This document shows positions 36,093 to 53,314 of a stretch of DNA of 64,000 nt, in pieces. Within the stretch, counting starts at the first letter, position 1, and the number at the start of each line of letters is the position of its first letter. Made by a program: the position numbers and the translations under genes. The notes under the pieces are model-generated. The model ran no database searches and had not been told where the DNA came from. It worked only from the letters and a program-made list of their open reading frames with translations. The stretch comes from an uncultured Bacteroidales bacterium (lineage in GTDB: Bacteria > Bacteroidota > Bacteroidia > Bacteroidales > VadinHA17): the NCBI GenBank assembly GCA_963816345.1, contig CAWFKI010000005.1, positions 2,399,572-2,463,571 on the forward strand, in the 5' to 3' direction.

Positions 36093-37331
36093 TCACCTGG
36101 TCAGCTTTATTGTCCTGATCTTTACAGACTGCAGATCCGGTAAATTATCTATCGGACTATCAAGGTAGAAATAGGCTGTTGCAGCGAGGTCGTCAGACCT
36201 GTAGAAATTTGTCCAGGCATTGGGCAATGACGGATCCTTAAGATTTACAGTGCTATCTCTTTTATAGATATGGATCATTTTTGGTGCGTCGTGGATTGTC
36301 ACAGGTATTAACCTGACATTTTCTTTCTGAAGTTCTATCACCTTATCCTTTGTGTTTCCACCTATCTGTTGTATTGTTACCCTGCAATCCGTGGCAAAAT
36401 AGACCGGGTCGGTAATATGATACCTGTAAAAAGCCCATTGCAGGTTCTTGCTGTCTGCCACAAGGCAGCCGGTGGTATTTGTAAAGAACTGACCCTGTCC
36501 CCAGGCTGTTCCGATATAATCTTCGGTCCCCGAACCGACCAGGGTTGGATCCTGTCCATCACCGTCGAGGTAAACCTTAACTTCACCCTCACCCCACCAG
36601 CAATCCTTATAATCGGGATTTGCATTTATGCTGATATTTGAACCAAGGAACCTGCCTTTCCCTTTCACAGAGGGCATGATCTCAAAATCCTTTGCCAGTG
36701 TTGTTGCCGTATCCCTGTGCCAGTAGCTGTGAAAATAGAGGAAATTATCGTCCCATCTTTTCAGCAGCTGCAGATCAATGTCAAAAAAGACCATGGGCAG
36801 ATCGACACCCGATTCGTTCACAAGCTCAACACGGGCAGCTGTTTTAAAAGGCATCTGGATAAAGCAGTTAAATGAACGTCCTTCCGGATTTGCAAAGAGG
36901 GCATTTTCATAAACGGCTGTTTTGCCCAGTCCGATACCGAAAAAATCACCAAAAGGTACAGAAACGGCAGGTTTTTTTTCATTATCCCAGTACATTTTAA
37001 GGACAAGGCTCCTCAGCATCACCGGCGAACGGTCACTTATAGTAACCCACATCCTGTTGATCACACCGGGTCCGGTCATATTCAGAATGGTTTTTGCCGA
37101 TCCGGCTCTTATGCTGTCGCAAGCATGACCTTTGGCCCCGTTATTCTCCATTCCTCCCCTGCCCTTTTCCCCTTTTATGTTTTCAAAGCTTACCCATCTT
37201 GGCTCAATATTGTTGCTGTACTCAAACATGCTTGAAGGGAAAAGATCACCTGATTTCACAGCTGCCTGGTCTTTACTGTTGCAGCCTGCCAAAGCAGTAA
37301 TCAGGATAACGGATAGTAATAAGTACTTCAT
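36093..37331 (-). CDS. GH172 (DUF2961) glycoside hydrolase lipoprotein
   Basis: Lipobox 'ALAGC'. 'GPGVINRMWVTI' and 'GSGTEDYIGTAWG' match DUF2961 signatures. Confidence 0.8.
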   Translation of the reverse strand: MKYLLLSVILITALAGCNSKDQAAVKSGDLFPSSMFEYSNNIEPRWVSFENIKGEKGRGGMENNGAKGHACDSIRAGSAKTILNMTGPGVINRMWVTISDRSPVMLRSLVLKMYWDNEKKPAVSVPFGDFFGIGLGKTAVYENALFANPEGRSFNCFIQMPFKTAARVELVNESGVDLPMVFFDIDLQLLKRWDDNFLYFHSYWHRDTATTLAKDFEIMPSVKGKGRFLGSNISINANPDYKDCWWGEGEVKVYLDGDGQDPTLVGSGTEDYIGTAWGQGQFFTNTTGCLVADSKNLQWAFYRYHITDPVYFATDCRVTIQQIGGNTKDKVIELQKENVRLIPVTIHDAPKMIHIYKRDSTVNLKDPSLPNAWTNFYRSDDLAATAYFYLDSPIDNLPDLQSVKIRTIKLTR

Positions 37332-37358
37332 TGTTTTTATTTTAAGTATCTGATTATT

Positions 37359-38853
37359 TTAATACAACGACTTTAATACCGGGTAAAGCTTCTTATAGAT
37401 GCTGAATTTTCTATCGTAATAATCTTTCTGCATTGGTTCAGCCCGGGAAACAGGCTTTACCCACCGGGCAGCAATTTTGCCAACATATTCACCTGTGTCG
37501 TGGGCTTTTGCCAGCATTGCTACTCCCATGCATCCCGCCTCAGTCACGTCCGGAATTGTAACCGGCATTCCAATCACATCGGCTTTCAGCTGAACCTGTT
37601 TTTTGGATCTTGCACCTCCTCCTATCATTCTCAGCTCCTTTACCTCATATCCCGATTCCCTCAGGATTTCGAGATTCAGCCTGATCTCAAGAGCTACTCC
37701 TTCCAGCAATGCTTTCAGTATATCCTCCCTCGTAGTAGTAAGATCCATACCTGTTATTGCTCCTTTTACCGATACATCAAAATAGGGAGTGCCTGATGGG
37801 GTGAAATATGGAAGAACAAGCAGATCCGAATGTTTTTCAGGCATGGCATCAATTAGCAGCTCAAAAGGATCTCTTTTTTCTATCCTGGCCCTTTCAACTT
37901 CGGCATCTCCGAACTGATCCCTGAACCATTTTAGTATATTTCCGCCTGTCAGACTGAAGGCAACTGTCGCATACATACCGGGAGCTGTATGATCATAGGT
38001 GCAGAGATTGTTTTTGCGAAGTTCCGGTGTAAAAACCGCTCTCTCAAATGCCGGCGTAATACACTCAACGGTTCCTGATGCAAAAACAGCCATGCCGGGT
38101 TCAATAGCTCCGGCTCCCAGGGCTGAACAGGGCTGATCATGCCCTCCCGTAACAATAAATGTGTTTGCAGAAAGATTCAGCCCCGGTGCGATCCGTGGAT
38201 CAATATAACCTGCAAGTAAACCTGACTGAAGAGGAACAGATAGTTGCCCTGCCGTCAATCCGGCAGCATCAAGTATTCCGGTGTCCCATTTATGGTTTAC
38301 AACGTCGAAGAGCATTGTTCTCCCGGCAAGCGGCCAGCCTATTGAGGGATTTTTTATGCCTAACCGGTATTGCAGGAGATCTTCAAAGCAAAGTATCCTG
38401 TGAGCCTTCTCCCATATTTCCTTATAATTTTCTCTAATCCACAGCAACTTGAACAATGAGAACATCGGATGGGGAGTGTGTCCGGTAATACTGTAAAGTT
38501 TCTCTTCCCCGAACCTGTCTGTCCATGGTTTTATAAGTTCATTAGCCCGTATATCTGATGAGACAAGGGCATTACAAAGTGCCTTACCTTTTTCATCAAT
38601 TATGGTGAATGCCTCGCCCTGGCTTGATATCCCTAATCCCCTGATTGACCTTTGAATCAATTCCTGATGCAGATTCGCGAATCACATCAAAGCATTTATT
38701 AATGACCTCATCGGTATCAAGCTCAGCCCATCCCGGATGTTGTGAGATCAGGTCATAACCCCTGTAGGAATCCGAAACCTGATGTCCGGCTTCATCAAAG
38801 ATCACAGCCTTGCAACCGCTTGTCCCGATATCTATTCCGAGGTAATAGTTCAT
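37359..38853 (-). pseudogene. FGGY-family carbohydrate kinase (xylulokinase-like) with one frameshift
   Basis: N-terminal 'MNYYLGIDIGTSGCKAV' (ATG at 38853) and C-terminal 'IGGGARSKKQVQLKADVIGMPV'. The ORFs 38596-38931 and 37359-38660 are in different frames, and the join '...SASGIDSK/IRGLGISSQGE' is near 38625-38650. Confidence 0.85.
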
Positions 38854-38896
38854 CTCTGTTTGTAATGTTCCGTTCCGGGTGTAAAGGGTTAAATCT

Positions 38897-39901
38897 TCAG
38901 ACGTACCAGAGGTTGAGGTAATCAAGTACAATTTTCTTCATCTCTTCAAAAATAATATCCTGCCTGTAAAGAGTTGTATAATGCGATAGTGATGCCTTCC
39001 CTGTTTTATCCGCATTATCACCGAGGAGACCTTCCCGGAACATAGCCTCAGCCTTTTCCTGTCCTGTTATTTTTGAAGCATTCCTTACCATATCTTCAAA
39101 AAGGACGGGGGAGCTGTTCCTTTCCAGAATTGTCCAGATATTGACTTTTGCTATCCCGTCGTTAAAAAGATTTCTGATCTGGTCATTCCCTACCGACGAT
39201 GTTCCGTGCAATACCAGTACAGTACCTGTCAGCCTGCTTATCTCCCTTGCCAGTTCTCCGTGATATTTAAGATCGGCAGCGCTTGCCCTGTGTTCGGTTC
39301 CAAGGTTGGCAACAATAAAATCCGCTCCTGTCTGCTTCAGGTATCTTAATGCCTGGTCTGGTGTTGTCAGATCGCTCCTTGTATCACCCGTTGCATCCAC
39401 AATCTCATCGCAGGCGCCCTCAATTACTATCTGGCGTCGGTTTTTTTCAATAAATTCTGCTGTCTTTTTTATATTCTCTTCAAAAGGCAGTGCAGATGCA
39501 TCATACATGATCATTGAAAACCTGTCCATATCCCATTCCAGCAGAGGCCGGTCAGCATCCCACTGGGTATGATCGAGGTGGATCATCACATTGAGTTTTT
39601 CAAACGGGGATCCCCTGCCAGTCAGTATATCCAGATCGGCAAGAAAGAGCCTCAGCCCTATATCCCATTTTCTGGTATGGGTATAATAAACTGACTGGCT
39701 GCGATGGCTGTACTGATTGGTAATACCTATCGTAACAGGCAGATGAGGAAAATCTATTGTCTCGCTGTATTCAAGGGCAGCAGATAAGATAGCTTCTGTC
39801 GTCGTGAGATTTTCACTGTTAAATGTAGGGATTACCCATTTTTGTTCACCGGCTTCCCTGTAAATATCCAGAACATTGTTTCTATCAAGAATTAGTGGCA
39901 T
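38897..39901 (-). CDS. Class II ketose-bisphosphate aldolase family protein (FBA/tagatose-bisphosphate aldolase type)
   Basis: 'IHLDHTQW', 'MYDASALPFEENI', 'LGTEHRA' and 'LVLHGTSS' match class II aldolase metal and phosphate-binding motifs. The ATG at 39901 ('MPLILDRNN') is preferred over the TTG at 39949. Confidence 0.8.
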   Translation of the reverse strand: MPLILDRNNVLDIYREAGEQKWVIPTFNSENLTTTEAILSAALEYSETIDFPHLPVTIGITNQYSHRSQSVYYTHTRKWDIGLRLFLADLDILTGRGSPFEKLNVMIHLDHTQWDADRPLLEWDMDRFSMIMYDASALPFEENIKKTAEFIEKNRRQIVIEGACDEIVDATGDTRSDLTTPDQALRYLKQTGADFIVANLGTEHRASAADLKYHGELAREISRLTGTVLVLHGTSSVGNDQIRNLFNDGIAKVNIWTILERNSSPVLFEDMVRNASKITGQEKAEAMFREGLLGDNADKTGKASLSHYTTLYRQDIIFEEMKKIVLDYLNLWYV

Positions 39902-40056
39902 ATAAATGATATAAGTTAAATTTTTAATTGTGAGCCCCGGTGAGCTCAAATCCCGGATTTTTGCAAAGTTGAAATTAAAATATTTACTGACTTAAAGATA
40001 AACAATCCCGAACTCCATGGAAAGGGCAGATGAATTTTATTTAAAGCTTTGTGTTC

Positions 40057-40106
40057 CTTTGAGATATCCTTCGAGTCTTTCGTGCCTGCCTGCCGGCAGG
40101 TAGGTT
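40057..40106. repeat. Third copy of the REP-like element (flank plus near-perfect palindrome)
   Basis: 'ctttgagatatccttcgag tctttcgtg cctgcctgccggcaggtagg tt'. The palindrome at 40085-40104 has one mismatch. It is in the same orientation as the 21750-21810 copy but sits inside a minus-strand operon. Confidence 0.85.
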
Positions 40107-40163
40107 AAATAATATTAATTTAAACAGAAAGCAGTACAGAGGTTCACACTAAGTGCACACTAT

Positions 40164-41018
40164 TTAATGAATTGTCCAGGTTATTTCCCAGGCCATAGGT
40201 TTTCCTGGTCCGACTGAGAGGTAACTGCCATCCCTGAAGGATTTTGAAAGATCGCTGCAGGTTCCGGGTATTGGCTCAAATGCACATTCGCTCCGCACAA
40301 TGCCTCCCTCAGGATAACCTGCATTATTCCACCAGATACCCAGGGTCGGGAATAGCTTATGATCAAACCTGATCGAGAGAGTTGATCCATTAATAAACTT
40401 CAATTTTACGGAACCATCGATAATGTTTCTTAACAGAAGCATAGAAAAAGATCCCGGTTGAAAAGCAAGCAGATATTCCCCCGAGTCTGCAGAGCTTTTC
40501 ATACCGGGATCTACTGATTTAACTTCATCAAATATTGTCCTGCACCCGGGGAGTTCAAGAGCTGTAACTTCACGAAGCGGTAAAAGGGCATGCATTACAT
40601 GAAGGAACACCGATCTTTTTTCCGACAGGGCTGAAGCTTCAAATCTCCAGGTCAGCCTGTTTCCCTCAAATGTGAGGATCCTTTTAAAATTCACCTCCGG
40701 TTGCTGACAATCAGTAAAAAACAGAAGTCTGTTTTTACCGATTTCTGTATCCCATTTCTGCCAGCAGAGCTGTCCGTGGTCCCTGCATTCAAAATCATTC
40801 CCGGGGTAAGTGCAGGGATCCACAGTAGGAAAGCAATCGTCATATCCATATACCGGCCTGGTTTCAAACTCTCCGTAAGGCCTGTCTGGAGGCCTGAATA
40901 CCGCCGGTTCAGAAGTAAGCAGCTCATGACCGGCATAATTCAGCGCCACTATCCGGGCCCCGTCATCCGGGTCATAATTAATTTGCCATTTCCCAAATTC
41001 TGCTTTCAGAATACCCAT
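40164..41018 (-). CDS. Galactose-mutarotase-like (aldose 1-epimerase superfamily) protein, tentative
   Basis: 'DDGARIVALNYAGHELL' and 'GYDDCFPTV...DHGQLCW' resemble aldose-epimerase-like proteins. The start ATG at 41018 overlaps the upstream stop (TGATG). Confidence 0.4.
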   Translation of the reverse strand: MGILKAEFGKWQINYDPDDGARIVALNYAGHELLTSEPAVFRPPDRPYGEFETRPVYGYDDCFPTVDPCTYPGNDFECRDHGQLCWQKWDTEIGKNRLLFFTDCQQPEVNFKRILTFEGNRLTWRFEASALSEKRSVFLHVMHALLPLREVTALELPGCRTIFDEVKSVDPGMKSSADSGEYLLAFQPGSFSMLLLRNIIDGSVKLKFINGSTLSIRFDHKLFPTLGIWWNNAGYPEGGIVRSECAFEPIPGTCSDLSKSFRDGSYLSVGPGKPMAWEITWTIH

Positions 41019-42406
41019 CAAAGAGCGATTGCTTTTATCCCTGTCAGTTCACAAAATGCTTTAAGCTCTTCATACAGATGGGCCCCGTATCCGAGACAGG
41101 CGTACTCATTGTTCCATGACTGCAACAGGGATTCGATATCGCATTCAGCTTTTACGAAGCCATGAGGCCAGAATGGAATGCCACATTCGTTCTTTCTCCG
41201 TTCAAGTTCACCGGCAGGCGGTTCGAATATTGTGCAACGTGTAATGACCATTTCAAAGAGGCCATTATTCCTTCCCAGTCTGGCAAGAACTCCTTCACCT
41301 ACCTTGCAAACGAGCTTTATTGATAAACCTCCGGCCTCGCCTTCTGTCGGGATGCCATGTTCCGCAAAACCTGCGGGTCCAAGCTTTCCGGCCAGTGAAG
41401 GCGGACAGGCGCCATCACCAATAATCTTAATCTCATTGTTCGATTTATCAATATGCTGAAGATCACCATAATAAATCGGATCAGCGCTTAAATCCGTGAG
41501 ACATTTTACCGTCAGTGCGGTATTGAAATCCCCAAGGGTCGAGGTACCCATGCCATCCTCCAGGATCATGCTCTGGGCAAAGCATGTAGCACTGTACTCA
41601 TCGCCCAGTCCGGGGAATGACTGAATTGTATAAAAGTCCCACTCATTCTTTTTTACCAGTTTCTTAATCGCCAGATAGAGCCGTATTGATCTTTCAGACT
41701 GATCATTTTCAGGAATTGGTTCGGAAAAAAGTTTCTGAATCCGTTTTTTTGCTTTAGTTATCTCCTCCGCTGTTATCTTTTTTGCTGTATCGAGTAATTC
41801 CGATGTATCTCTTGAATCAATATCTATTCCAAAGGTCTTCATCCATTGTGAAGGATCGGCAGCTCCGCATGTCTGGCCCATTCCTCTTCCTCCGAATGTG
41901 CCAATGGTGCTCATGTTCAGGGAATTTTTCATGGCGCTTGCCCGGCAGTAAGAGGTGATCTTTTCAACCTCCTCCGGGTCCTCAAAGCTCCCGTAGACAA
42001 ACCGGTGTTTTATTCCTATCTCTTTAAGGGCTCCCTGCATTACCAAGCCCCCTACCGGTCTCCATCCCTGGCTTCCCGGATTGGTCCAGAGGATAATTCC
42101 CCTGCCGGTAGTGGCAAAATCGCGGATAGCTGCTATAAGATGGGCTGCCCATACCCAGGTGCCGGAAAACAGGATCACAGCATCAACATCGTTCATTTTT
42201 TTGAATTTATCAAAGCAGTCCCTCGCCTCCTTTTTTGAGGCAATCACCAGTTCATGTTCCACGAGATCGATGCCGCTTTTCCTGAGGGCTTCTTTCGCAC
42301 CACTCACAATACGGTCATCAATAAAAGGTGTTCCCATCGGATCCTGCAGTCCGTCCTTATGAACACCATAGACTATAAATCCAACCCTGGCTTTGATCAT
42401 ATGCAT
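41018..42406 (-). CDS. L-fucose/L-arabinose isomerase family protein, tentative
   Basis: 462 aa with an N-terminal Rossmann-like 'VGFIVYG...DAVILFSGTWVWA' region and a central 'TFGGRGMGQ', as in FucI/AraA-like sugar isomerases. The start overlaps the amidohydrolase stop (TAATG). Confidence 0.5.
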   Translation of the reverse strand: MHMIKARVGFIVYGVHKDGLQDPMGTPFIDDRIVSGAKEALRKSGIDLVEHELVIASKKEARDCFDKFKKMNDVDAVILFSGTWVWAAHLIAAIRDFATTGRGIILWTNPGSQGWRPVGGLVMQGALKEIGIKHRFVYGSFEDPEEVEKITSYCRASAMKNSLNMSTIGTFGGRGMGQTCGAADPSQWMKTFGIDIDSRDTSELLDTAKKITAEEITKAKKRIQKLFSEPIPENDQSERSIRLYLAIKKLVKKNEWDFYTIQSFPGLGDEYSATCFAQSMILEDGMGTSTLGDFNTALTVKCLTDLSADPIYYGDLQHIDKSNNEIKIIGDGACPPSLAGKLGPAGFAEHGIPTEGEAGGLSIKLVCKVGEGVLARLGRNNGLFEMVITRCTIFEPPAGELERRKNECGIPFWPHGFVKAECDIESLLQSWNNEYACLGYGAHLYEELKAFCELTGIKAIAL

Positions 42407-43498
42407 TATTTTAATGTTAAATTAATTTCATTTTTCAGAGAAGGTATTATTCTCAGTATATTTTCATAATATACTCTCCTCAGAACCTCCGGGGGAAGAC
42501 CTATTCCGCAAATCGGCCATCGCGACCTCTCAAAAGTGCCGTCATAATCGGGGGAATAAAATGACTCATCATAAGTTTCAAGGAACCTGAAATAAGTGCG
42601 GTACATCTCAACGGAACTATCAATATTCGCCGGCATATCGGTCCCGAAAATAATCCTGTCCTGGTGCTTTATGAAGAATTCTCTGGCAGTATATGGCTGC
42701 CGTCCCAGTTCATCCAGCCTGGCAGAGAAATCGATATAGACATTTGGATTATCAGTAAGTAATTCCGAAACATACCTGATATTTTCAGGCATAATTCCCG
42801 AAATGAGGCAGAATAAAAGTTGTGCCGGGATGCTGCCTGATAAGATCATCGCGTCTTTTTAGCAAATCAGTCTTGCGCGGATATTTCGGATCGGCAAAGC
42901 TCCATGACGGGATATTTCTTCAGTGATTCAAAATGTTCATTTTCAGGAGTAGCCGGTTCAAAAAAACCTGACGGATCTGCCTGGTGTATCAGTACCGGCA
43001 TATTCAGCCGTCCGGCTTCTTCCCAGATCGGAAAAAGCCTTGGGTCATTACAGTTGATAAGTTCACCGGCTGCATCCCTGTAATGAAGTCCAAGCTCCTT
43101 GAGAATCTTAAGTCCTTTTGCTCCCTGCTGAACATGAAGATTCAGAGTCTCAATACACTCATGCCACAAACTGTTTATGATCAGTAAAAAGCGGCCTGTC
43201 TGCACGGCCTGGCAAAATCAGCCATTGTAAAACAGTAGAAACGCCCGGGATATTTATGTGCGCAATTCTGAAAGAAATCCCGAATATTGCCCGGGTTTAT
43301 TACATATCCTCCTTCAGAAAATTCAATATGAACATTCCCGGTCAGATCACAATAGCTTACTACCCCAACTTCATCAAGTGTTTCAATGACCCTCGATACC
43401 TGCCAGTTTCCCCAGAGATGGTTATGTGCATCAATAACAGGGAATGCTGCCCTGACTATCTCAGTCTGATTATGAACCAGCCAGTTCTTTTTTGCCAT
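42406..43498 (-). pseudogene. Amidohydrolase-2 family (PF04909-like; lactonase/decarboxylase type) gene with three frameshifts
   Basis: 'VIDAHNHLW' at the N-terminus. The pieces 43181-43537, 42867-43205 and 42406-42849 are in three frames. A further stretch, 'SWSFADPKYPRKTDLLKRRDDLIRQHPGTTFILPHFGN', reads in the frame between the last two. The shifts are near 43195, 42895 and 42790-42805. Confidence 0.8.
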
Positions 43499-43562
43499 TA
43501 TGGTTTTTTTTCTTAATTTATCTATAAAAATGCCCAATGACGATAAGGTAGATTATATTCAC

Positions 43563-43570
43563 CAAAAGTA
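43563..43570 (-). promoter_or_regulatory. Candidate -7 box (TACTTTTG on the minus strand) for the amidohydrolase operon
   Basis: The plus-strand 'caaaagta' is the reverse complement of TAnnTTTG. It lies 65 nt upstream of the ATG at 43498. Confidence 0.3.
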
Positions 43571-43594
43571 TCTTTTAGGAATCGATTTTTATGA

Positions 43595-43602
43595 TAGTTT
43601 TG
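43595..43602 (+). promoter_or_regulatory. Candidate -7 box (TAGTTTTG) for the AraC-family gene
   Basis: A TAnnTTTG match 26 nt upstream of the ATG at 43628, in the divergent intergenic region. Confidence 0.35.
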
Positions 43603-43627
43603 TATTAAATAATAACACTATATTGAC

Positions 43628-44483
43628 ATGTTACCTAACCTTGAAAAGGTTGAAGCCAATATCAACCATTCCTTTCACATTAATCATATGAAAGTTGATT
43701 TTTTCCCTTCACTGCGTCATTTTCATCCTGAGGTTGAGATACTGCTTGTAGTACAGGGAACAGGCACCAGGTATGTAGGTGACTCGGTTGAATCATTTGC
43801 TCCGGGTGACCTGGTGATGATCGGGCCCGAATGTCTCCCACGAGTGGTGCAGTGACAAACCGGCCGGAAACAGTTGCTCAGAAGCTATCTATATACTGTT
43901 CAATACTGAAATTATGGGAAATGAATTCTGGAATCTTCCGGAGTCCAAGATCATTCTGAAAATAATACAGCAGGCAGGCAGGGGAATCAAACTTACCGGC
44001 AGGACAAGGGATGAAGTGGCCTCTCTGATGAAACGTATCGACACTTCCTACGGGTTTACCAGGATCACCCTGCTTATGACAATCCTTGAAATGATAGCTT
44101 TTAACGGAGAATATCAGTACCTGGCCACTCCTGTTGTACAAAACACAATTAATGAAAGGGACAGTGAAAGGCTCAATAAAGTATACCGTTATGTTCTGGA
44201 CAACTGTCAACAGGATATAAGTCTCGGAAGGGCTGCATCATTGGCCAATCTTTCAAAACCTGCATTCTGCAGGTATTTCAAAAAGAGAGCAAACAAAACC
44301 TTTGTGAGTTTTTTAAATGAGATAAGGATAGGACAGGCATGCAGATTTCTTGTTAATGAAAACTATTCAATTGCTGAAATATGCTACTCCTGCGGGTATA
44401 ACAATATTTCATATTTTATAAGACAGTTCCGTGCAATAACCGGCTTCACTCCTCTTGGCTACCGGAAGAAATTCGCTGATTAG
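43628..44483 (+). pseudogene. AraC-family transcriptional regulator (cupin + HTH) with one frameshift
   Basis: The cupin part 'HFHPEVEILLVVQGTG' ends prematurely ('GPECLPRVVQ*'). Shifting one base at the GGGCCC run (43823-43828) restores 'GPNVSHEWCSD...' in the frame of the 189-aa HTH ORF ('AEICYSCGYNNISYFIRQFRAITGFTP'). Confidence 0.9.
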
Positions 44484-44524: not shown

Positions 44525-46527
44525 TCATTTGAAATTAAACTTACGGATTATCTCCTTTGATCCCTTATCATTGCTGGCTACGACTCTTATAGCTCCCTGG
44601 GTGAGGGCCATCTTTGTTCTGTCAAGGGTATCTCCCCCGAACTGCTCAAGGAAGTATCCCTCATCACTGACCGGTAATTCTTTTCCGTTCACCACTATTT
44701 TAGTTCCGGGCTCCGTCCACCCGAATACTTCAACTGAAGAGTGCTCTGTAAGAGGTGAGTTTTCCAGTGGGACTGTCTGTACATAGATCATAGGACTTTT
44801 GTCAAATCCGGTCAGCTCATCAAGTAACTGTTTTTTAGCGTCATACAGTACTGCCGGATCATCGGAATGTTCTGATCAATTGTCATCACAACCCTGCCTG
44901 AGATCTCATGTCCGCGCTGCCTGGGATCAATCCATTCAGCATGTTTTCCCAGGGAGTCTTTCAGGTTGCGGATTTTATTCTCCAGCATCATGAAGCAATC
45001 GTAGTCCTGAATGCCATTCCTCATCTCCTCCCAGCGCAGTGAGTTGATAACGCCATCCTTAACGGGATAAACATGCCATCCATCGCCGATATGCATTCCA
45101 ACCTCCTTATAAGGATCTTCCGTCCATTGGTTCCACCCCCAGTGAAGATAGCCGGTTGCATCAAATCTGTAATTAAGCCAGTGCATTATTCGGCTGTTCA
45201 TAACCGGCATGTCAATAGTCTTATTCGGAAAAAGGCTTCCCTGGTAAATCCCGACTGTATAAAACCATAGTTCCACACCTTTATGCTGTGCTTTCCTGTA
45301 TTCATCATACCAGGTACCGAAAGCATCAAGTTTTGGTACTGCAACCTCTATATCATTAAGCAGGTTAGTCGTTTCAATGGCATCAATCCTTATGAGATCG
45401 GGTGCGTACTTATGGACATACTGTGACATCTCGACCCACGACAATGAATTATGCATAGATGGCTCATCCTTGATATGGAAGAGTGTATGCTTCAGCCATC
45501 CCTTTGCTCTCAGATGATCTTCAGTTGCTGACAATAGAGCGGGAGCAACTTCATTTCCGGCAATTTTTTCAGTTTTTCCCGTAACAGCATCCTTTACCCT
45601 GAAATCCCTGAGTTTAATATCCGTACTGTACCATGCGTCACTTCCAAATCTTGTCAGTTCTCCGGTCTCCAGATAGTCCATATTTTTTGTATTCCAGAAT
45701 ACCTGGGCAATCTGGTCGAACCTCGTGAAATCGAAAGTTAATTTACCATCTTTTGACTTCTGAATTTCTATTGCCTCCATCGGCACCTGAAATACATTCT
45801 GCCTGTGTGATGCCATGTTTTCCGCGTATTTTCCGAGCATCGCGAACCAGGCCGGGGAATATTCCTCATTAATACCGTGAAAGTGTGCAAAATCACTGGT
45901 GTTATACCATTCCGTCACTTTAAGGTTCCTTTTTTCCGGAAGTGTTAACGGATATACAGTAAGCGATACAGGAAGCCTTGCTTCTCCCTGCTGGCTTGTA
46001 ACTGTGATCTCACCTGTATAGCTGCCCGGTAAAGAGGATACGGGAATATTAATTGTGATCCAGATACCTTTGCAGGATTTTTCTTTTAATGTGAGCTGCC
46101 TTTCCTGCATGAGATAATCAGGAAACATAGCCGGAGCCTTTCGTACCACTGCCCTGACCGGCTGATTTGGCGTGTTTTCGGTGAGAGGTATGCTGCCTAC
46201 AAAGTTCCATTCCACATTTATTGCAGGGAAAATATTGCCTGTGCTTTTATCACTCAGAGCTCCAACCACGGCAGTAACATCTGTCTGAGCCCTGGTTGCC
46301 TGAACGGCGCACTGCCCTGATAGTATTTCGCCCCTTATCCCAAAAAGCTTAAGAGTATCAGCCATTAAAGGTAACTGATAGCCATCTTCAAAGACCCTTT
46401 TCAGGTCGCTTACAGCTTTAATCTTCAAGGGCTGGGCAGAAAGGAGAGCCGATGAGAGAAATATGATCATGAGCGCCATCGGGCGGGACACCGATAAACG
46501 GGATGAGAGGAATCTGAATTTTTTCAT
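44525..46527 (-). pseudogene. DUF4091-type (GH123-like) glycoside-hydrolase-domain protein with a C-terminal frameshift
   Basis: The 571-aa ORF with a signal peptide ends '...TIDQNIPMIRQYCMTLKNSYLMS*'. The adjacent frame reads 'SEHSDDPAVLYDAKKQLLDELTGFDKSP' directly into the 88-aa ORF 44525-44791. The shift is near 44870-44878. The family call is from memory of DUF4091 proteins. Confidence 0.55.
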
Positions 46528-46549
46528 TTTGTTTAAGTTTTACTATAAA

Positions 46550-48634
46550 TCAATCCTTATTTAATCCAAAGGTCTTATAAAAATCGGGAAGAGTTTCTTC
46601 TGCGCCTGTTTCAATCCTGGTGCTCTCCATGCCCTTTATCTGTATATTCTGCCAGAATTGTATTTCGTGGTCAAATCTTGACAGTGCGGCACCCAGTTTA
46701 AATCGGGTATATTCATTCAGATATGCCTTTTCATAATCGCTTTTCAGTTCGCTGTAGTAGTCAATAAGATCAGTCGCTTTGGAATGACAATGTCCGGCCA
46801 GATCGTAAAAAAGCAGGAATCCGTTATATTTTCCTTTTTCCACAGGGCTTGTCCACCTGTTGTGAATATATTCTGCGAACAGGGCGCGCATGGAGGTATA
46901 CTCAATCATTCTGCAGACTACATTCAGGGTTTGCATCATATGGTCGTCAGGGTATTTCTTTTCCAGGGTTATCAACTCCTCAAGGGCGTCCTCTGCCGCA
47001 ATCCTTGATTTTTGAAGAACTTCCTTATTCTCACGGACCATTTTCAGATAATATTCCTTGAAAGGATCCACCCATGCCTGGTTCTGGGAAGCCTGAGAGA
47101 AAACTTTTGTCAGGTAATCGTTCGACTCCTGCACCTTATTTAAAGCTTTAATCATTTTGGCCCTGTAGAACGGGTCGTCATAATGCAGATATCCGTATTG
47201 TTCAACAAAATGTTGTTTATCAGGGTTGTCTTTCTGCCACGAGCCAGCTGCTGTATAGGCTATCTGAACCAGTGAGGGTCGTGTAAGAGTTATCATAGCA
47301 TCCGTCCACAGACACTGGGTCATTCCGAGTGCGCCTTTTCTCTTTCCCAGGGGCAGGAAAAGATCAGCATTAGTATAAGTAAGCTGTGTACTGTAAAAAT
47401 CGTTCCAGTTATCAATGGAAGGCTGGACAAAATACTTCAGTTTATTCTTGTTCATAACATCGATCCACTTATTCATCTCCGTTGTATCAGCATCATAATA
47501 CCATGCCGGGTAATAGAAATCCTTTGGTACTTTTTTAAACTGATCCATCAGGCTCTCATTGACGAAAATATCCATCCATGCCATCCCTGTTTTGCCATTC
47601 TCCCTCAGAAGTCCGGCGACATAATCAAGTTGTTGCAGGAAATAGGCATTTGCGTCAATAACCTTACCGTTTTTCAGCGGTGCCACTCCATCAGCCTGCA
47701 TGCGCGAAAGCCGTCGTGTAAACCATGTTTCATCAAAACCTATGTGGAAAAAAGGACTCGGGAAAAGATCGGATATCTCCTTCACCATCTTTCTCACCAT
47801 ATCTCTTGCTTCCGGATTTGTCGGATCAAATTCAAATCCGTACTGCCCTGTGCTAAGTGAAGAATACTTCTCGATCCTGAATATGTCGTGAAGATGACCA
47901 TAGAGTGCCTGAAAGGGCACTATATCCACATGTCTCTCCCTTGCATATGCGATCAGGCTACGGATAACTTCTTTGGGGACTTTCGATTTGTAACCTACCA
48001 GCGGGAACGAATCAAGCTCAATACTCGATTCCGAGTAAAACATGAGCTGATTGCTCTTGAACATTGCCAGTTCATCAATAATTTCGCAGGTAAACTGCTC
48101 ATTATAGATGGCTCCTTCGCCAAAAGCGACAAGCAATCCCCTGTATGGTAGTGCGGGATAGTCGGTTATCTCTACCTCAGGTAAAATGAACTCCTTACCT
48201 CTCTCTTCAGGTAGCTGCCTGAGGCTCTGAATTGCATACCAGGCCGCTGCAGAGGAGTTGCCCGTGATATAAACACCATCCTTTCTGATACTTAATTTAT
48301 ACGCTTCCCTGCTTCCGGGGCCGGCTGATTCATTCAGCCCTGGCACTGGAGGAAGATTTCCATGATCGATGATGACCTGTTTCCCTTTTTTCTCCTTTAT
48401 GACAGGTACTGAAATCCCGGTACGGCTCTTCAGGAAAGCTGCCAGCTGACCCGCATTGAAGATATCCTCCTGCCCGGTACCGGACGGCAGGTAAATAGTG
48501 AGATCTGAGATCAGCAGCTGACCAGAGCCATACTTAATCTGTTGTGGCTGAGGCAATAATACAGGATGTGGCTGGGACAATGCAGGAATACTGAATAAAA
48601 GCAGAATCAGAAATTTTATCGCTTTTTTCATCAT
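46550..48634 (-). CDS. GH20-like beta-N-acetylhexosaminidase family protein
   Basis: Signal peptide. 'ITDYPALPYRGLLV' and 'FFHIGFDETW' resemble the GH20 'D.P...RG' and 'H.GGDE' motifs, and the D-E pair is retained. Confidence 0.65.
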   Translation of the reverse strand: MMKKAIKFLILLLFSIPALSQPHPVLLPQPQQIKYGSGQLLISDLTIYLPSGTGQEDIFNAGQLAAFLKSRTGISVPVIKEKKGKQVIIDHGNLPPVPGLNESAGPGSREAYKLSIRKDGVYITGNSSAAAWYAIQSLRQLPEERGKEFILPEVEITDYPALPYRGLLVAFGEGAIYNEQFTCEIIDELAMFKSNQLMFYSESSIELDSFPLVGYKSKVPKEVIRSLIAYARERHVDIVPFQALYGHLHDIFRIEKYSSLSTGQYGFEFDPTNPEARDMVRKMVKEISDLFPSPFFHIGFDETWFTRRLSRMQADGVAPLKNGKVIDANAYFLQQLDYVAGLLRENGKTGMAWMDIFVNESLMDQFKKVPKDFYYPAWYYDADTTEMNKWIDVMNKNKLKYFVQPSIDNWNDFYSTQLTYTNADLFLPLGKRKGALGMTQCLWTDAMITLTRPSLVQIAYTAAGSWQKDNPDKQHFVEQYGYLHYDDPFYRAKMIKALNKVQESNDYLTKVFSQASQNQAWVDPFKEYYLKMVRENKEVLQKSRIAAEDALEELITLEKKYPDDHMMQTLNVVCRMIEYTSMRALFAEYIHNRWTSPVEKGKYNGFLLFYDLAGHCHSKATDLIDYYSELKSDYEKAYLNEYTRFKLGAALSRFDHEIQFWQNIQIKGMESTRIETGAEETLPDFYKTFGLNKD

Positions 48635-48816
48635 ATATCCTTATTAAAGATTATTGTTATTAAGGGATCCGGTGTAATTTCCCAATATAAATAAAAATGA
48701 GGTCAGTTGATCCAAAGTGATAAAAAAGTTAAAGGCTGACCCTGCAGCGAAAGAGGACAATAGCCTGAATTCCTGAAATACTTTTTATGTTCAATGGATT
48801 AAATTTATTGAAACCT

Positions 48817-50330
48817 CTATTTGCTGTTGCAGTTATTAGTCACTCTGGTACATGACTTAAGCAAAACCGGAGGCACTGCCGGATTCGAGGGGGACGATAC
48901 TGCAGTCATATCATTAAGTATCAGGTTATCGACCTTCACTGCCATCAGTGCATTTGTGTAATACGGGGCCTCCACTCCGTCCCAGTTAATGGTCCCCTGA
49001 TTAAAAAATACGTTTCTCGCATTTTCTATATAAACTACCGGGATATCCGATTTATAAATTTCCTTGCCTTTAATAATATTCGGCCTCAGATCAAAATTAC
49101 CACCGCTGACCTTGTCCAGTGTACTTTTTCCAATACAAAATCAAAGTTGGTGAAACTGATATTCTCTAATTTTGTCTCATCCGATGCATACATCAGTATT
49201 GAATTCTCACCCCGGCAGGTAATATTATCAAAATAAATATTCCTGATAAATCCGACAGGATCATCTTTGACACCGCGCATTGCCGAAATTTTTATGGGTT
49301 CTCCGTTACCCCACCAGTCGCCGGTATGCATCCGGGTCTCAATGCGGATATTTGAAAAATTTACATTCTGAACCGACCCGGAGTCACGTACTGTTATGTT
49401 AATGCCGCAATTGGAATCATAGATGGTTATATTGTCAAAATTATAATTGGACATTGAGTTCTGATCCCATCCCCCTATTCTTATGGCACTTGACCTGGAC
49501 CTTAATATGCAATTGGAGATATTGATATTTTTCGATGGTTTTATAATATCCTTATAACCGGGATCACCAAAATGGTGAGCATATCCTGCGAGTACTATGG
49601 CATCATCGCCGCATGAGATTATGCATCCTGAGACATTGACATTGCTGCTGGAATTTATATCCAGACCGTCGCTGTTTGGGATCAGCAGGTTATTGTCTAT
49701 CGATACATCAGTTACATATACCCTGTCGCAATGAACAATAAGGAAAGTCCAGTAAGGAGCATCGACCACCTCAAAATCCTTAAGGGCGACATTAGTGCAG
49801 TTGCTGAATATTATCATCTGATGATATCTCTCCCTGGGCATTACCGGGCCGTCGCCGATTCCCTTTTCAACTTTCCGGAAGTCATATTTCTGGCGGATAT
49901 ATTTATTTACCTCTCCCCTGATAACCTTTGCACTGTCTCTGTACATGAATTCCATTCCCTGGCCAAATATTCTGCCCTGACCCGTTATGGATACATTCCT
50001 GGAATCTTCGGTATAGAATACTCCGGCAAGCTGTTCATTATGTTTCTGATATGCAGACAGATCAGTGGTGGCTTTCAGCACTGCCCCGCTCTCGAGATGA
50101 AATTCAACATTTGATTTCAGATTCAGAGTTCCCACAAGGTATTCACCACAGGGAACATATACGACACCTCCGCCATCGAGGGCGCATCTATCAATAGCAT
50201 TCTGAACAGGTACCGTTGTAAGTTCCCTGCCATTGTTGATGGCTCCATAATCCATAATGTTGTAAACAGCTGATATTGATTTAAGACCGGGAACCACAAG
50301 CAAAAAACAGAACAAAACCTTTCTGATCAT
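48817..50330 (-). pseudogene. GH28 polygalacturonase-family gene with one frameshift
   Basis: 'YGAINNGRELTTVPVQNAIDRCALDGGGVVYVPCGEY' and 'NSDGLDINSSSNVNVSGCIISCGDDAIVL' are GH28 motifs. The ORF ends at 49086, but the next frame continues 'STLDKVSGGNFDLRPNIIKG...TRVTNNCNSK*' to 48817. The shift is at the T5 run 49125-49129. Confidence 0.85.
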
Positions 50331-50374
50331 AATGATGCGTTATTATATTCTTTTAATTCAGGACAGGCTGAAGA

Positions 50375-52585
50375 TCAGTTCCGGAACAGGCTCTTATTGG
50401 GCTTGGAATCCATCGTGAAATCCAGGGTACCGCCATTCATTATCTCATCGTGGGTAATATATGACCTGTTGAGAGTTACTCCGTTAAGCTTTACTTCCCT
50501 GATGTATTTATTATCTGCCGAAGCCATTGGAGCATTAATAGTAAAATATTTACCCGGAGCTACTTCGATCTTTGCTTCCTGAACAAACGGGGAGCCAAAC
50601 TGGTACTTAAGCTCTGAAGGATTCACCGGATATAAGCCCAGTGAGCTGAAGACGTACCATGCTGACATCTGCCCGCAGTCTTCGTTTCCGCATAATCCGT
50701 CAGGAGCGCTGCTATACATCGTAGTCTGGATCCGACGGTTAAGCTCCTGGGTACGCCACGGCATTCCACAATAGTTAAACAGAAATGTTGTATGATGGCC
50801 GGGCTCGTTCCCCTGGGCATATGCGCCTATTAATCCCGTTATATCAGGAGAAGCCTCATTTCCCCTGACCCCGACCCTGACTTCAAAGAGTTGTTCCAGT
50901 TTAGCGGCAAATCGCTCCTTGCCGCCTAGCAATTCTATCAATCCATCCACATCCTGTGGTACAAGCCACAGGTATTGCCATGCATTACCCTCCGTGTAGT
51001 CACTTCCTTCATGTCTGGAATAAACAGGATCAAAGGGTGTCGTCCATTGACCGTTACTCAGCTTACCCCGCATAAAGCCTGTACTGCTGTCAAAATATTC
51101 CCTGTAGCTTTTCGACCGCTTTAAAAAATATGCCGCATCTTCCATCTTTCCAAGCTTAGCTGCGACTGCAGCCACAGCCCAGTCATCAATTGCTACCTCG
51201 AGTGATTTCGAAACAGACTGCTGGACCTTATCGGCAGGCATGTAGCCCAGTTTCATATATAATCCCATTCCGTCGCGGTCAAAGAGGGATGTTTTTTTCA
51301 TGGCCTCATATGCGAGATTCCGGTCGAAATCTCCTATCCCCTTCAGGATTGCCTCAGCAATAACAGAAATGGAATGATTTCCCACCATGCAGAAAGTTTC
51401 ATTTCCTTCAAGCTCCCAGACAGGAAGAATACCGCACTGCTTATAATGATCCAGCATTGATTTTACCATATCATTTACTCTCGGCTGCTGGGTTAGGGTA
51501 AAAAGAGGGTGCAGGGCGCGGTATGTATCCCAGAGTGAGAATACCGTGTAGCGGTTATACCCCTCAGCCTTCTGAATATCACCTTTCAGACCTTTGAACT
51601 CCCCGTTCAGATCAGAGAAAAGGGCGGGAGCTATCATTGTATGATAAAGAGCCGTATAAAAAACTGTCTTTTGATCCGCATCATTTGACTTGATCCTGAT
51701 TTTGCCAAGCTCCTTTTCCCAGGCGGCATCAGCAGCATTCCGGGTTGCTTCAAAGTTCCATCCGGGAAGAGATTCGCTCAGGTTTTCAAGTGCATCTTCC
51801 GTGCTTATTGAAGATATGGCTACCTTTGCCATTATGACTTTATCCCGGAATTTGAAATAACCTGCAACCTGTTCTTCACCTCCGGTATTTGTTATCTGAT
51901 ATTTCGAAACCGGCTTTGAGAATTTAACTGCAAAAAAGACATGCTGGTCGGCTGCCCATCCTGTTGATAGCCGTGTACCCGTGACTAGCGAATCATTGAC
52001 GACTGTCAGTGAAGTTTTATATGGCTTATCCCAGTTAATAGCAAAGCCCAGGTTTATAAGAAGGTTATTCTCTCCTCCTGCCGGGAATGTATAACGGTGG
52101 AGACCAGCTCTTTGTGTTACTGTAAACTCCGCCATTATCCCGCTGTTTTTAAGAGTCACGGCATAATAACCCGGTCTGGCAGTCTCACCGTCATGACTAT
52201 ATTTACCTGCATATCTTGATACAAAACCTGCATTGCTCTCACCTTCACGGAAAGTCACCTCAGAGGCTACCGGGAGAAAAGAAATATCTGCCAGATCTCC
52301 GATACCGGTACCGCTCAGGTGCAGATGGCTGAAACCCGCCAGAACACTATCGGAATAATTGTATCCGGAACACCAGTCCCACCCCTGAGTGCCATTATCC
52401 GGGCTAAGCTGGATCTGCCCGAAAGGCCAGGCAGCACCGGGAAATGTGTGCCCGTGAGCAGCAGTTCCGATAAAGGGATTAACGAAATCAGTAAGCCGGT
52501 CTGTCATAGAAACTTTCTGCCTGGAACAGGAAAATGCTGAGATAAGAATGAAGGTTCCGGCTATAAAAGAAAGATAATTCCTCAT
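50375..52585 (-). CDS. GH92 alpha-mannosidase
   Basis: 'FVNPFIGTAAHGHTFPGAAWPFGQIQLSPDN' is the GH92 N-terminal signature. 736 aa with a signal peptide. Confidence 0.9.
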   Translation of the reverse strand: MRNYLSFIAGTFILISAFSCSRQKVSMTDRLTDFVNPFIGTAAHGHTFPGAAWPFGQIQLSPDNGTQGWDWCSGYNYSDSVLAGFSHLHLSGTGIGDLADISFLPVASEVTFREGESNAGFVSRYAGKYSHDGETARPGYYAVTLKNSGIMAEFTVTQRAGLHRYTFPAGGENNLLINLGFAINWDKPYKTSLTVVNDSLVTGTRLSTGWAADQHVFFAVKFSKPVSKYQITNTGGEEQVAGYFKFRDKVIMAKVAISSISTEDALENLSESLPGWNFEATRNAADAAWEKELGKIRIKSNDADQKTVFYTALYHTMIAPALFSDLNGEFKGLKGDIQKAEGYNRYTVFSLWDTYRALHPLFTLTQQPRVNDMVKSMLDHYKQCGILPVWELEGNETFCMVGNHSISVIAEAILKGIGDFDRNLAYEAMKKTSLFDRDGMGLYMKLGYMPADKVQQSVSKSLEVAIDDWAVAAVAAKLGKMEDAAYFLKRSKSYREYFDSSTGFMRGKLSNGQWTTPFDPVYSRHEGSDYTEGNAWQYLWLVPQDVDGLIELLGGKERFAAKLEQLFEVRVGVRGNEASPDITGLIGAYAQGNEPGHHTTFLFNYCGMPWRTQELNRRIQTTMYSSAPDGLCGNEDCGQMSAWYVFSSLGLYPVNPSELKYQFGSPFVQEAKIEVAPGKYFTINAPMASADNKYIREVKLNGVTLNRSYITHDEIMNGGTLDFTMDSKPNKSLFRN

Positions 52586-52636
52586 TGTCTGTGTGTTTGA
52601 TACATATTTATTGATGAAAGTAAAAATAGGCAGATT

Positions 52637-53314
52637 TTATTCTTTTATCCGGCCGTTTTCAATAATGAAAATCCTGTCAGCAATATTTTCAGGAATATTT
52701 CCATGCGTAGCTATTACAACAGTCACTTTTTTCTCATTCCTTAAAAAGAGAAGATGGTCCATGATTTCACCTGCTGTCACCTCATCAACCGATCCGGTGG
52801 GTTCATCAGCAAATATGACTGATGGATGTTTTACCAGTGATCTGATGATGGCAACTTTCTGCTGCTGACCTGCACTAAGTTCAGAGGGCATCAGGTCAGC
52901 CTTATCCTTCAGACTGAACTGACCGAGAAGAGCGAAGATGTCATCCCTTATAATGCCTCTGTTAGATTTTTCCGGAACAAGCGCTATCTCTATATTCTCA
53001 TAAACAGTATACGTGGGCAGGAGATTAAAGCTTTGAAATATAATACCAATTTTTTCCGACAACAGATTGCTCAGCAAATTGTCAGACATATCGCTTATAC
53101 AATCACCATCAATAATGACCCTGCCATGAGTCGGCCTGATCAGCCCGCACATCAGATTGAGAAGGGTGGATTTCCCGGCTCCTGAACGGCCTTTGATAAG
53201 CACCATCTCATTCTGCTTTATGGAAAGATTAATGTCATCCAAAGCTGTAACAATTTGGTTTTTGCTACTGTACTGCTTTGTAAGAGAAACACATTCTATA
53301 TGGTTCTGAGCCAT
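52637..53314 (-). CDS. ABC transporter ATP-binding protein (MacB/LolD-like)
   Basis: Walker A 'GRSGAGKSTLLN', signature 'LSAGQQQKVAI' and Walker B 'VIFADEPTGSVD'. Confidence 0.9.
   Translation of the reverse strand: MAQNHIECVSLTKQYSSKNQIVTALDDINLSIKQNEMVLIKGRSGAGKSTLLNLMCGLIRPTHGRVIIDGDCISDMSDNLLSNLLSEKIGIIFQSFNLLPTYTVYENIEIALVPEKSNRGIIRDDIFALLGQFSLKDKADLMPSELSAGQQQKVAIIRSLVKHPSVIFADEPTGSVDEVTAGEIMDHLLFLRNEKKVTVVIATHGNIPENIADRIFIIENGRIKE

Follow-up and report, generated by a model that had tools for sequence, protein, structure and literature searches.

The 64,000-nucleotide window analysed here (contig CAWFKI010000005.1, from the seven-contig, 5.03-Mb genome assembly of an uncultured Bacteroidales bacterium) carries a catabolic cassette encoding an Amidohydro_2-fold enzyme, a candidate aldose-ketose isomerase, a protein of galactose-mutarotase fold (p285), a class II aldolase and an FGGY kinase, together with a divergent AraC-type regulator and the candidate furanosidases GH172 and GH116. 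We see an even chance that exported exo-D-arabinofuranosidases release D-arabinose at this locus and that the sugar would be catabolised by the isomerase, kinase and aldolase acting as non-orthologous substitutes for FucI, FucA and FucU. This reading is built on the gene families and folds of the encoded proteins, on synteny, on the repeated presence of GH172 and GH116 subfamily 4 beside the cassette, and on diagnostic residues that are kept. The original prediction, which covered the run from GH172 to AraC, had likened it to the isomerase, kinase and aldolase logic of E. coli fucose catabolism; that logic is kept in our model, but the proteins that would carry it out are not orthologous, the isomerase being neither FucI nor AraA by curated thresholds. 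Its remark that the combination is not a textbook pathway stands. No cassette enzyme reaches an equivalog-level match to any characterised family.

To describe the conservation of the cassette, loci around isomerase orthologues were numbered from L001 onwards; L001 itself is a metagenome contig with an isomerase 93% identical to that of the window. All coordinates are window positions unless prefixed C3 or C5. Of 78 distinct loci, 63 carried the amidohydrolase, 60 the FGGY kinase, 56 the aldolase and 37 p285, and the genes were always co-directional and tightly spaced, with the aldolase adjoining the kinase. The neighbourhood conservation that had been proposed as a check was thus observed, the order amidohydrolase-isomerase-(mutarotase-like)-aldolase-kinase recurring under nine phylum labels (Bacteroidota, Planctomycetota, Chloroflexota, Kiritimatiellota, Lentisphaerota, Calditrichota, Balneolota, Ignavibacteriota and Actinomycetota) with an isomerase identity of 73-93%, and the divergent AraC gene was retained in 15 related loci. 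Since the arrangement was found again in dozens of unrelated metagenome-assembled genomes (MAGs), it is far from chance. Species genomes contain 313 relatives of the isomerase, the best 79 of which are 73-91% identical and all derive from MAGs, and its family is compact in sequence space, with 941 clusters of 50% identity at E<=1e-3 among 1.84 billion representatives. Within the lineage of the host it is sporadic (in the order it occurs in 2 of 151 genomes, in the family in 3 of 121 and in the genus in 2 of at least 22 species), too rare for a statistical profile with GH172. The cassette behaves as a horizontally mobile accessory module.

Judged by synteny, the window from ~36.1 to 58.5 kb is one conserved locus with the cassette as its distal catabolic half, because a GH116 gene and a XylE-like porter gene also lie upstream as in the relatives. 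The order in the window (porter of the major facilitator superfamily (MFS), GH116, FtsX/ABC, GH92, GH28, GH20, GH123, AraC, cassette, GH172) matches the extended synteny of these relatives. GH172 was the commonest accessory gene family within 10 kb (17 of the 78 loci, 20 genes), followed among the glycosidases by GH116 subfamily 4 (10 loci), while XylE-like MFS porters occurred in seven loci and GH29 in four. The original prediction had joined GH172 to the isomerase/kinase/aldolase set; it is an accessory add-on and not core. The cassette-linked GH172 genes belong to at least five subtypes or positions in Bacteroidota, Planctomycetota and Chloroflexota, the background rate is ~4 GH172 loci per 5 Mb in the host genome, and well-supported branches of the isomerase tree force at least eight independent changes of the GH172/GH116 label. 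GH172, GH116 subfamily 4, isomerase and kinase were found together in the window and in L018, L021, L022, L023, L031, L038 and L041; GH116 occurred without GH172 in L007 and without the kinase in L039. DgGH172c is a proven alpha-1,5-D-arabinofuranosidase, and in L018, L031 and L038 a GH172 that matches it at 531 bits lies directly between GH116 and the cassette, behind the XylE-like porter. The porter of the window is 78-86% identical to those directly upstream of GH116 in L007, L022, L023, L031 and L038, and this porter cluster scored 373 bits for XylE and 398 bits for sugar porter.

The GH116 of the window scored 340 bits to the exo-beta-D-arabinofuranosidase ExoMA2 (8ic6), as against ~45 bits to GH116 beta-glucosidases, and the cassette-linked copies scored 340-345 bits. 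It keeps the nucleophile Glu431 (WEG), His446 (CTHVW), Arg483 (QVFR) and the acid/base Asp557 (NTYDIE); in ExoMA2, His446 and Arg483 bind O2 of beta-D-arabinofuranose (Araf). The same four residues were found in ten complete cassette-linked GH116 proteins, while an eleventh (L007, 596 aa, at a contig end) lacks the acid/base motif. To our knowledge ExoMA2 is the only characterised exo-beta-D-arabinofuranosidase.

The GH172 of the window matched PF11175 (DUF2961) at 231 bits against a cut-off of 27, as well as four GH172 structures in the PDB, of which ExoMA1 (8ic8, 1e-41) was nearest. It carries the lipoprotein signal MKYLLLSVILITALAGC, and its catalytic Glu motifs WWGEGE and GSGTEDY align with ExoMA1, DgGH172c and alphaFFase1 (residue assignments from PMC10115798 and preprint 10.64898/2026.08.13.744632). 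Orthologues of this type directly follow the kinase in L001, L017, L018, L021, L022 and L072. The idea that GH172 and the isomerase/kinase/aldolase set form a D-arabinofuranoside pathway thus gains from the GH172/GH116 association, the Araf-binding residues and the DgGH172c homologue of the relatives; one diagnostic position of the window GH172 itself, a Gly discussed below, might also admit fructofuranosides. Chances appear evenly balanced that this accessory glycan-utilisation locus targets glycans carrying D-arabinofuranose. The features of the locus are as follows:

36093..37331, minus strand: GH172 (DUF2961) lipoprotein, candidate exo-alpha-D-furanosidase, last gene of the run
37359..38853, minus strand: FGGY carbohydrate kinase, 497 aa in relatives
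38897..39901, minus strand: class II Zn aldolase (PF01116, fructose-bisphosphate aldolase (FBA)/tagatose-bisphosphate type), 334 aa
39902..40163, no strand: AT-rich spacer of 262 bp with a GC-rich 20-nt palindrome at 40085-40104
40164..41018, minus strand: galactose-mutarotase-fold protein p285, 284 aa, a fold-level match
41018..42400, minus strand: candidate aldose-ketose isomerase, 460 aa, remote member of the FucI/AraA/SftI superfamily
42406..43498, minus strand: Amidohydro_2-fold metal-dependent TIM-barrel enzyme, cassette gene 1, 362 aa in relatives
43499..43627, no strand: divergent intergenic region of 129 bp, where the promoters and operator of AraC and the cassette presumably lie
43628..44483, plus strand: AraC-family regulator with cupin sensor and HTH_18/HTH_AraC domains, divergent from the cassette, 284 aa in relatives
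44525..54531, minus strand: exported glycosidases and ABC pair between AraC and GH116 (GH123, GH20, GH28, GH92, ABC ATPase, FtsX permease; from Pfam and synteny with L001, L018, L021 and L022)
54614..57127, minus strand: GH116 subfamily-4-like lipoprotein, candidate exo-beta-D-arabinofuranosidase, upstream in the same conserved locus and outside the run of the original prediction
57187..58515, minus strand: XylE-like sugar-porter MFS transporter, probable importer of the released monosaccharide

The gene order, strands and families predicted for the run were correct by Pfam (GH172/DUF2961, FGGY, PF01116, Amidohydro_2 and the AraC helix-turn-helix, with HTH_18 at 71 bits on 43914-44483), although the amidohydrolase, FGGY kinase and AraC genes are not intact open reading frames (ORFs). 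Both 1-nt stop/start overlaps were present, TAATG between amidohydrolase and isomerase and TGATG between isomerase and p285, and the hairpin placed between the mutarotase-like gene and the aldolase corresponds to the palindrome at 40085-40104, which resembles a repetitive extragenic palindrome. Signal peptides were found on every glycosidase of the locus and on none of the five cassette proteins. The GH172 gene ends 14 nt from a convergent plus-strand operon. A scan for sigma-70-type promoters and terminators, using a model that does not suit Bacteroidota, gave nothing above shuffled sequences.

In the favoured model, the GH172 lipoprotein (36093-37331) and GH116 (54614-57127) would free D-arabinose in the periplasm or at the cell surface, the XylE-like MFS porter would import it, and the AraC-type regulator would sense the sugar and drive the divergent operon. 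In the cytoplasm the GalM-fold p285 would equilibrate ring forms or anomers, the 460-aa isomerase would convert D-arabinose to D-ribulose, the FGGY kinase would phosphorylate the ketose, most simply at C1, and the PF01116 Zn aldolase would cleave the product to dihydroxyacetone phosphate (DHAP) and glycolaldehyde. The amidohydrolase, translationally coupled to the isomerase, would add a step besides this scheme. L-fucose and L-galactose, which share the C2-C4 configuration of D-arabinose, are probably accepted too, which would explain the GH29 gene found inside the cassette of the closest relatives. The substrate, the order of steps, phosphorylation at C1, the aldol products and the regulation are those we infer from the evidence above and from the identity of the individual enzymes.

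The 460-aa protein had been called FucI/AraA-like. A remote kinship stands, but membership of either family does not by curated thresholds: the Pfam scores were all below threshold (Fucose_iso_N1 24.1, cut-off 28; AraA_central 21.9, cut-off 24; Fucose_iso_C 18.6, cut-off 29.3), the NCBIfam scores far below (AraA 36.5 against a cut-off of 622, FucI 15.9 against 775), the only PDB matches were to AraA at 23-25 bits, and hhalign gave no alignment (probability 0.4%) between the isomerase profile and the genome's own canonical FucI. The best NCBIfam match was sulfoquinovose isomerase SftI (NF048012; 80 bits against a cut-off of 700, E 1.7e-22, residues 35-394). The protein is accordingly described as a remote isomerase candidate of the FucI/AraA/SftI superfamily. 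Besides Asp291 its invariant acidic and His residues are D313, E323, H348 and H413, the placing of which needs a structure. A sulfoquinovose pathway, as the SftI match might suggest, was rejected in view of the 80 versus 700 bits and of the lack of recurrent sulfoquinovosidase or sulfonate genes nearby.

For p285, the label "mutarotase-like" holds at the level of the fold and not of the sequence family. No match was obtained in Pfam, NCBIfam or PDB sequences, including the aldose 1-epimerase (GalM) model PF01263, but the AlphaFold model (mean predicted local distance difference test, pLDDT, 95) matched 3dcd, 3k25, 3nre and GalM 1l7k in Foldseek (E 1e-13 to 1e-10, template modelling (TM) score 0.6-0.73). 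Its invariant His and Glu residues are H82, H141, H144, E245 and E249. In loci without p285, a DUF5107/TPR protein of 1000 aa is found ahead of the cassette (at ~5700-8800 in L009, L028 and L030 and, truncated by the contig start, at 3-848 in L024) and is also encoded in L002:14192-17323. The DUF5107-type structure 5cd6 was among the Foldseek matches of p285, a hint that the DUF5107 protein may functionally replace p285; the DUF5107 paralogues of the host genome carry signal peptides.

The amidohydrolase matched PF04909 at 32 bits on its C-terminal fragment, and the intact orthologues matched the same family. Its invariant residues D23, H25, H27, H171, H222/H231 and D286 make up the HxH/His/Asp metal-ligand set. 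The structural model (pLDDT 88) gave weak matches (TM ~0.5) to LigJ hydratase, decarboxylases and ACMSD, and there was no PDB or NCBIfam sequence match and no placement in a lactonase, decarboxylase or hydratase subgroup. The lactonase role hinted at in the original prediction is unsupported, as the cassette contains no dehydrogenase and no known lactonase is close in sequence or structure. A paralogous amidohydrolase/EamA/DUF5107 region at C5:3.06-3.09 Mb encodes exported proteins and offered no functional clue.

The FGGY kinase scored 121 bits for FGGY_N and 104 bits for FGGY_C on its large piece and 51 bits on its N-terminal piece, and the full-length L001 kinase scored 277 bits for XylB (cut-off 380) and 129 bits for fuculokinase (cut-off 471), reaching no equivalog. 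The aldolase, which is 95% identical to that of L001, matched PF01116 at 123.5 bits (cut-off 25.5) and fell far below all NCBIfam equivalogs (FBA, GatY and KbaY; best 97 bits against 343). Inspection of the translation revealed the Zn-ligand histidine motifs HLDH, GTEH and LVLHG. The aldolase did not match PF00596 (FucA-type Aldolase_II), genes of which lie elsewhere in the genome, so that the earlier assignment to the FBA type and not the FucA type was confirmed.

The L-fucose pathway of E. coli (FucU, FucI, FucK and FucA) also takes D-arabinose to DHAP and glycolaldehyde. The present cassette shares its four logical steps (mutarotase, isomerase, FGGY kinase and metal-dependent aldolase) and the activator-controlled operon, but only the kinase is of the same family, scoring below the fuculokinase model, whereas PF01116 stands in place of PF00596 for the aldolase and a GalM fold in place of RbsD/FucU for the mutarotase candidate, the isomerase is not FucI, and an amidohydrolase is added. 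SftI, of similar length (443 aa), is likewise an aldose-ketose isomerase; no other characterised family matched the 460-aa protein significantly, yet the score is far from the SftI cut-off, and neither sulfoquinovosidase, transaldolase/transketolase nor sulfonate genes were seen in the neighbourhoods.

D-arabinan loci combine GH172, GH116 subfamily 4 and isomerase/kinase genes (PMC10509167). In Microbacterium arabinogalactanolyticum the cluster encodes ExoMA1 (GH172), ExoMA2 (GH116 subfamily 4) and EndoMA1/2 (GH183) with a putative isomerase and kinase (Shimokawa et al. 2023, PMC10509167); among solved structures the window GH172 is nearest to ExoMA1, and the window GH116 keeps the ExoMA2 residues, but the glycosidases here are exported lipoproteins, the cassette includes an aldolase and the GH172 has Gly where ExoMA1 has Asn253, whereas that organism is Gram-positive, with intracellular exo-enzymes, an ABC importer and D-ribulose-5-phosphate (Ru5P) as the proposed end point. 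PUL42 of Dysgonomonas gadei (Al-Jourani et al. 2023, PMC10115798) is also a Bacteroidota locus, with several GH172 exo-alpha-D-arabinofuranosidases, a GH116 candidate and an aldose-ketose isomerase, and its DgGH172c is the enzyme to which the GH172 of the relatives scored 531 bits. A fucose isomerase was the most abundant such protein of D. gadei on D-arabinan (PMC10115798); it was considered as a member of the 460-aa family and rejected, being a canonical 591-aa FucI. Further differences are that the present locus adds the Amidohydro_2 enzyme, GalM-fold protein, PF01116 aldolase and FGGY kinase and that its immediate run contains no SusC/D pair, import apparently being by the XylE-like MFS porter. 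A search of the host genome for GH183 was empty, as it was in the control genomes. The alphaFFase1 of Bifidobacterium dentium (PDB 7v1v), a GH172 difructose dianhydride I synthase/hydrolase (PMC8605356), shares the family, the catalytic Glu motifs and the Gly, but the window GH172 scored only 113 bits to it in three pieces, ExoMA1 being closer, and alphaFFase1 is linked neither to isomerase/kinase/aldolase genes nor to GH116. The literature yielded no description of an isomerase-like/amidohydrolase/FGGY/class II aldolase cassette beyond two D-arabinan papers of 2023 and the sulfoquinovose work. The cassette, for which no prior description was found, is best seen as related to the D-arabinofuranoside loci described in 2023.

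Several observations weigh against D-arabinose catabolism by this scheme. With respect to the isomerase, the alignment to E. coli AraA covers the central domain alone; there AraA Glu306, one of the catalytic or metal-binding residues of that enzyme (Glu306/Glu333, His350/His450), faces Leu289, which is invariant and has Asp291 beside it, and the nearest characterised relative, SftI, acts on a D-gluco sugar. The amidohydrolase, which is the most faithful partner of the isomerase, has no role in the simple scheme, the kinase is closer to xylulokinase (a C5 kinase) than to fuculokinase, and known PF01116 aldolases make or cleave 3S ketose phosphates, D-ribulose-1-phosphate and L-fuculose-1-phosphate being 3R. 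A simple route from D-arabinose to Ru5P would need neither aldolase nor amidohydrolase, and one same-genus genome has amidohydrolase, isomerase and kinase without an orthologous aldolase. Only about one locus in four carries GH172 or GH116, and in the second clade of the isomerase tree (15 loci) neither family is linked to the cassette and an adjacent amidohydrolase is usually missing. No PF13810 (GH183/DUF4185 endo-D-arabinanase) was found in the whole genome, a search in which the control genomes gave no match either. The window GH172 and six orthologues have Gly (TAWGQG) at the position of ExoMA1 Asn253, which excludes fructofuranose (Fruf) by blocking its 1-hydroxymethyl group, and alphaFFase1 likewise has Gly299. 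DgGH172c has Cys at this position and is an Araf-ase, so that Asn is not required and the Gly is permissive for Araf rather than contrary to it. Finally, the amidohydrolase, kinase and AraC genes of the window are frame-broken.

The frame breaks lead to the alternative that survives best, namely that the locus is in this organism a decaying, non-functional remnant and that the breaks in the amidohydrolase, kinase, AraC, GH123 and GH28 genes are real mutations, which we regard as possible but on the unlikely side. Compared with L001, the amidohydrolase has four single-base insertions (~43203, 43163, 42906 and 42787) that divide it into four frame segments, the kinase has one extra base at ~38648, and AraC has one near 43822-43828 (tblastn of the L001 protein placed residues 1-67 in frame +2 and 66-284 in frame +3 at 95% identity). 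GH123 (44525-46527) is broken by a 2-nt insertion near 44876 and GH28 (48823-50330) near 49150, both being intact in L001. The eight breaks, in ~17 kb of coding sequence syntenic with L001, are clustered, with four in a single gene of 1.1 kb while neighbouring genes totalling 9.6 kb are free of them, and none of the extra bases lies in a homopolymer, as would suit genuine decay; moreover isomerase, p285, aldolase and kinase are each single-copy in the host genome, and the lack of the cassette in most same-genus species marks it as dispensable. Read in their own frames, however, the fragments have ratios of nonsynonymous to synonymous substitution of 0.04-0.19 versus L001 (0.11-0.15 for those of the amidohydrolase), like the intact neighbours with 0.08-0.15. 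Given this purifying selection on every fragment, the breaks either are errors of the consensus or arose very recently. GH172 and DUF5107 paralogues elsewhere in the genome are likewise split across adjacent frames, which favours assembly error in the form of genome-wide consensus indels of a long-read-type assembly; the GH172 paralogues at C5:2464359-2465058 (~0.8-1.5 kb past the right end of the window) and C5:821391-822059 are in two and four pieces, respectively, and a fourth genomic GH172 (C5:65601-66371) is intact. Consensus error or very recent decay is thus the most likely origin of the breaks in the amidohydrolase, kinase and regulator genes.

A wider proposal, which we rate as rather improbable when taken as a whole, is that the cassette is a route for D-arabinose and L-galacto sugars with an SftI-like D-arabinose isomerase, a non-hydrolytic amidohydrolase (e.g. 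a 3-epimerase of ketoses or their phosphates) and a PF01116 aldolase that acts on the epimerised 3S ketose-1-phosphate or has gained 3R specificity. It would have passed horizontally between anaerobic glycan degraders belonging to nine or more phyla and, in anoxic sediments, soils and digesters, would be a main sink for the arabinan of actinobacterial (mycobacterial-type) cell walls.

The second alternative concerns the substrate. L-fucose, L-galactose and D-arabinose have the same C2-C4 configuration, and the cassette might be primarily an alternative L-fucose/L-galactose pathway to DHAP and L-lactaldehyde or L-glyceraldehyde, fed by GH29. GH172 and GH116 would then be coincidental or act on L-fuco- or L-galactofuranosides, the ring geometry of which is the same as that of D-Araf. 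We consider this unlikely. All four logical functions of a fucose pathway are present, whereas isomerase and kinase alone could handle D-arabinose, and the four closest relatives (L001, L005, L017 and L072) carry a GH29 gene within the cassette, flanked by p285 and the aldolase, where the window has the spacer, differing from L001:12238-13984 by a clean indel of ~1.5 kb. On the other hand, GH29 is far less frequent among the 78 loci than GH172 or GH116 subfamily 4, the associated porters are of XylE and not of FucP type, and the GH116 copies keep the D-Araf-binding residues of ExoMA2. In addition the genome already has at C3:438874-442680 a canonical FucI (600 aa), after which a membrane protein (148 aa) and an FGGY kinase (471 aa) are encoded (with no FucA, FucU or FucP adjacent), as well as several PF00596 aldolases elsewhere, so that the cassette is not simply the ordinary fucose operon.

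The third alternative keeps D-arabinose as the substrate and changes the chemistry: the isomerase would make D-ribulose, the amidohydrolase would be a ketose or ketose-phosphate 3-epimerase leading to D-xylulose, and the FGGY kinase would yield either D-xylulose-5-phosphate for the pentose phosphate pathway or D-xylulose-1-phosphate for cleavage by the aldolase. This, which appears quite unlikely, would give the amidohydrolase a role in keeping with its tight linkage to the isomerase (63 of 78 loci, stop/start overlap), with the trio of amidohydrolase, isomerase and kinase that stands alone in the same-genus genome, with XylB as the best model of the kinase, and with a full metal-ligand set in a protein that has no close relative of known function. 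D-xylulose-1-phosphate (or 6-deoxy-L-sorbose 1-phosphate via L-fuculose) is 3S,4R and suits an FBA-type aldolase, PF01116 stereochemistry fitting 3S ketoses, and the amidohydrolase superfamily does include a proton-transfer isomerase, uronate isomerase. However, we know of no Amidohydro_2 member that is an epimerase, the structural matches are hydratases, decarboxylases and lactonases, ~15 loci without an adjacent amidohydrolase keep aldolase and kinase, and the proposal rests wholly on inference.

Very unlikely, and the weakest of the alternatives, is that the window GH172 is an alpha-D-fructofuranosidase/difructose-dianhydride or other ketofuranoside enzyme and the cassette serves another rare sugar (e.g. 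a 6-deoxy or D-gluco/D-xylo aldose), for although the Gly (TAWG) admits the 1-hydroxymethyl of fructofuranose in alphaFFase1, the only significant characterised relative of the isomerase is sulfoquinovose isomerase, the kinase is nearest to XylB and a PF01116 aldolase fits 3S,4R ketose-1-phosphates, fructose requires no aldose-ketose isomerase, the recurrent GH116 subfamily 4 and DgGH172c-type GH172 point to D-Araf, the alphaFFase1 active site accommodates D-Araf with DgGH172c being an Araf-ase despite its Cys, and sulfoquinovosidase or sulfonate genes are not among the recurrent neighbours.

D-arabinofuranose is a rare sugar of mycobacterial-type cell walls. Enzymes degrading D-arabinan were identified only in 2023, and the fate of the released D-arabinose was assumed and not studied. 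The compact, highly conserved five-gene cassette is repeatedly tied to both known exo-D-arabinofuranosidase families in many uncultured anaerobes. If the favoured model holds, it would represent a new pentose or deoxyhexose pathway, would give a function to a divergent class II aldolase and to two orphan clades, one of isomerases and one of amidohydrolases, and would offer a marker by which the turnover of mycobacterial-type cell-wall necromass could be followed in anoxic settings. It would also pose a stereochemical question, namely whether a PF01116 aldolase acts on 3R ketose-1-phosphates or an epimerase is hidden in an amidohydrolase fold.

Several further features were noted around the cassette and in related loci. 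L002:3998-6462 encodes another amidohydrolase-isomerase pair, with 68% and 80% identity to the first, and such a pair is also present in L003 and L011. It adjoins GH3, a PIG-L deacetylase and a Gfo/Idh/MocA gene, so that the pair has been duplicated and recruited to another sugar context. The MacB-type FtsX permease and ABC ATPase genes between GH116 and GH92 (52637-54531, minus strand) keep their position in L001, L018 and L022 and are without obvious partner proteins; L023 has only an ABC-ATPase-like ORF there. An FGE-sulfatase-domain gene (PF03781, 546-726 aa) that is absent from the window is convergent to GH172 in L001 (17951-20131), L018, L021 and L022. The convergent plus-strand genes at 32416-36079 (URO-D/MtaA-like, XylE-like porter and URO-D-like) are also cassette-adjacent in L007, L017 and L018 with 74-92% identity, and may belong to the same accessory island as the cassette.

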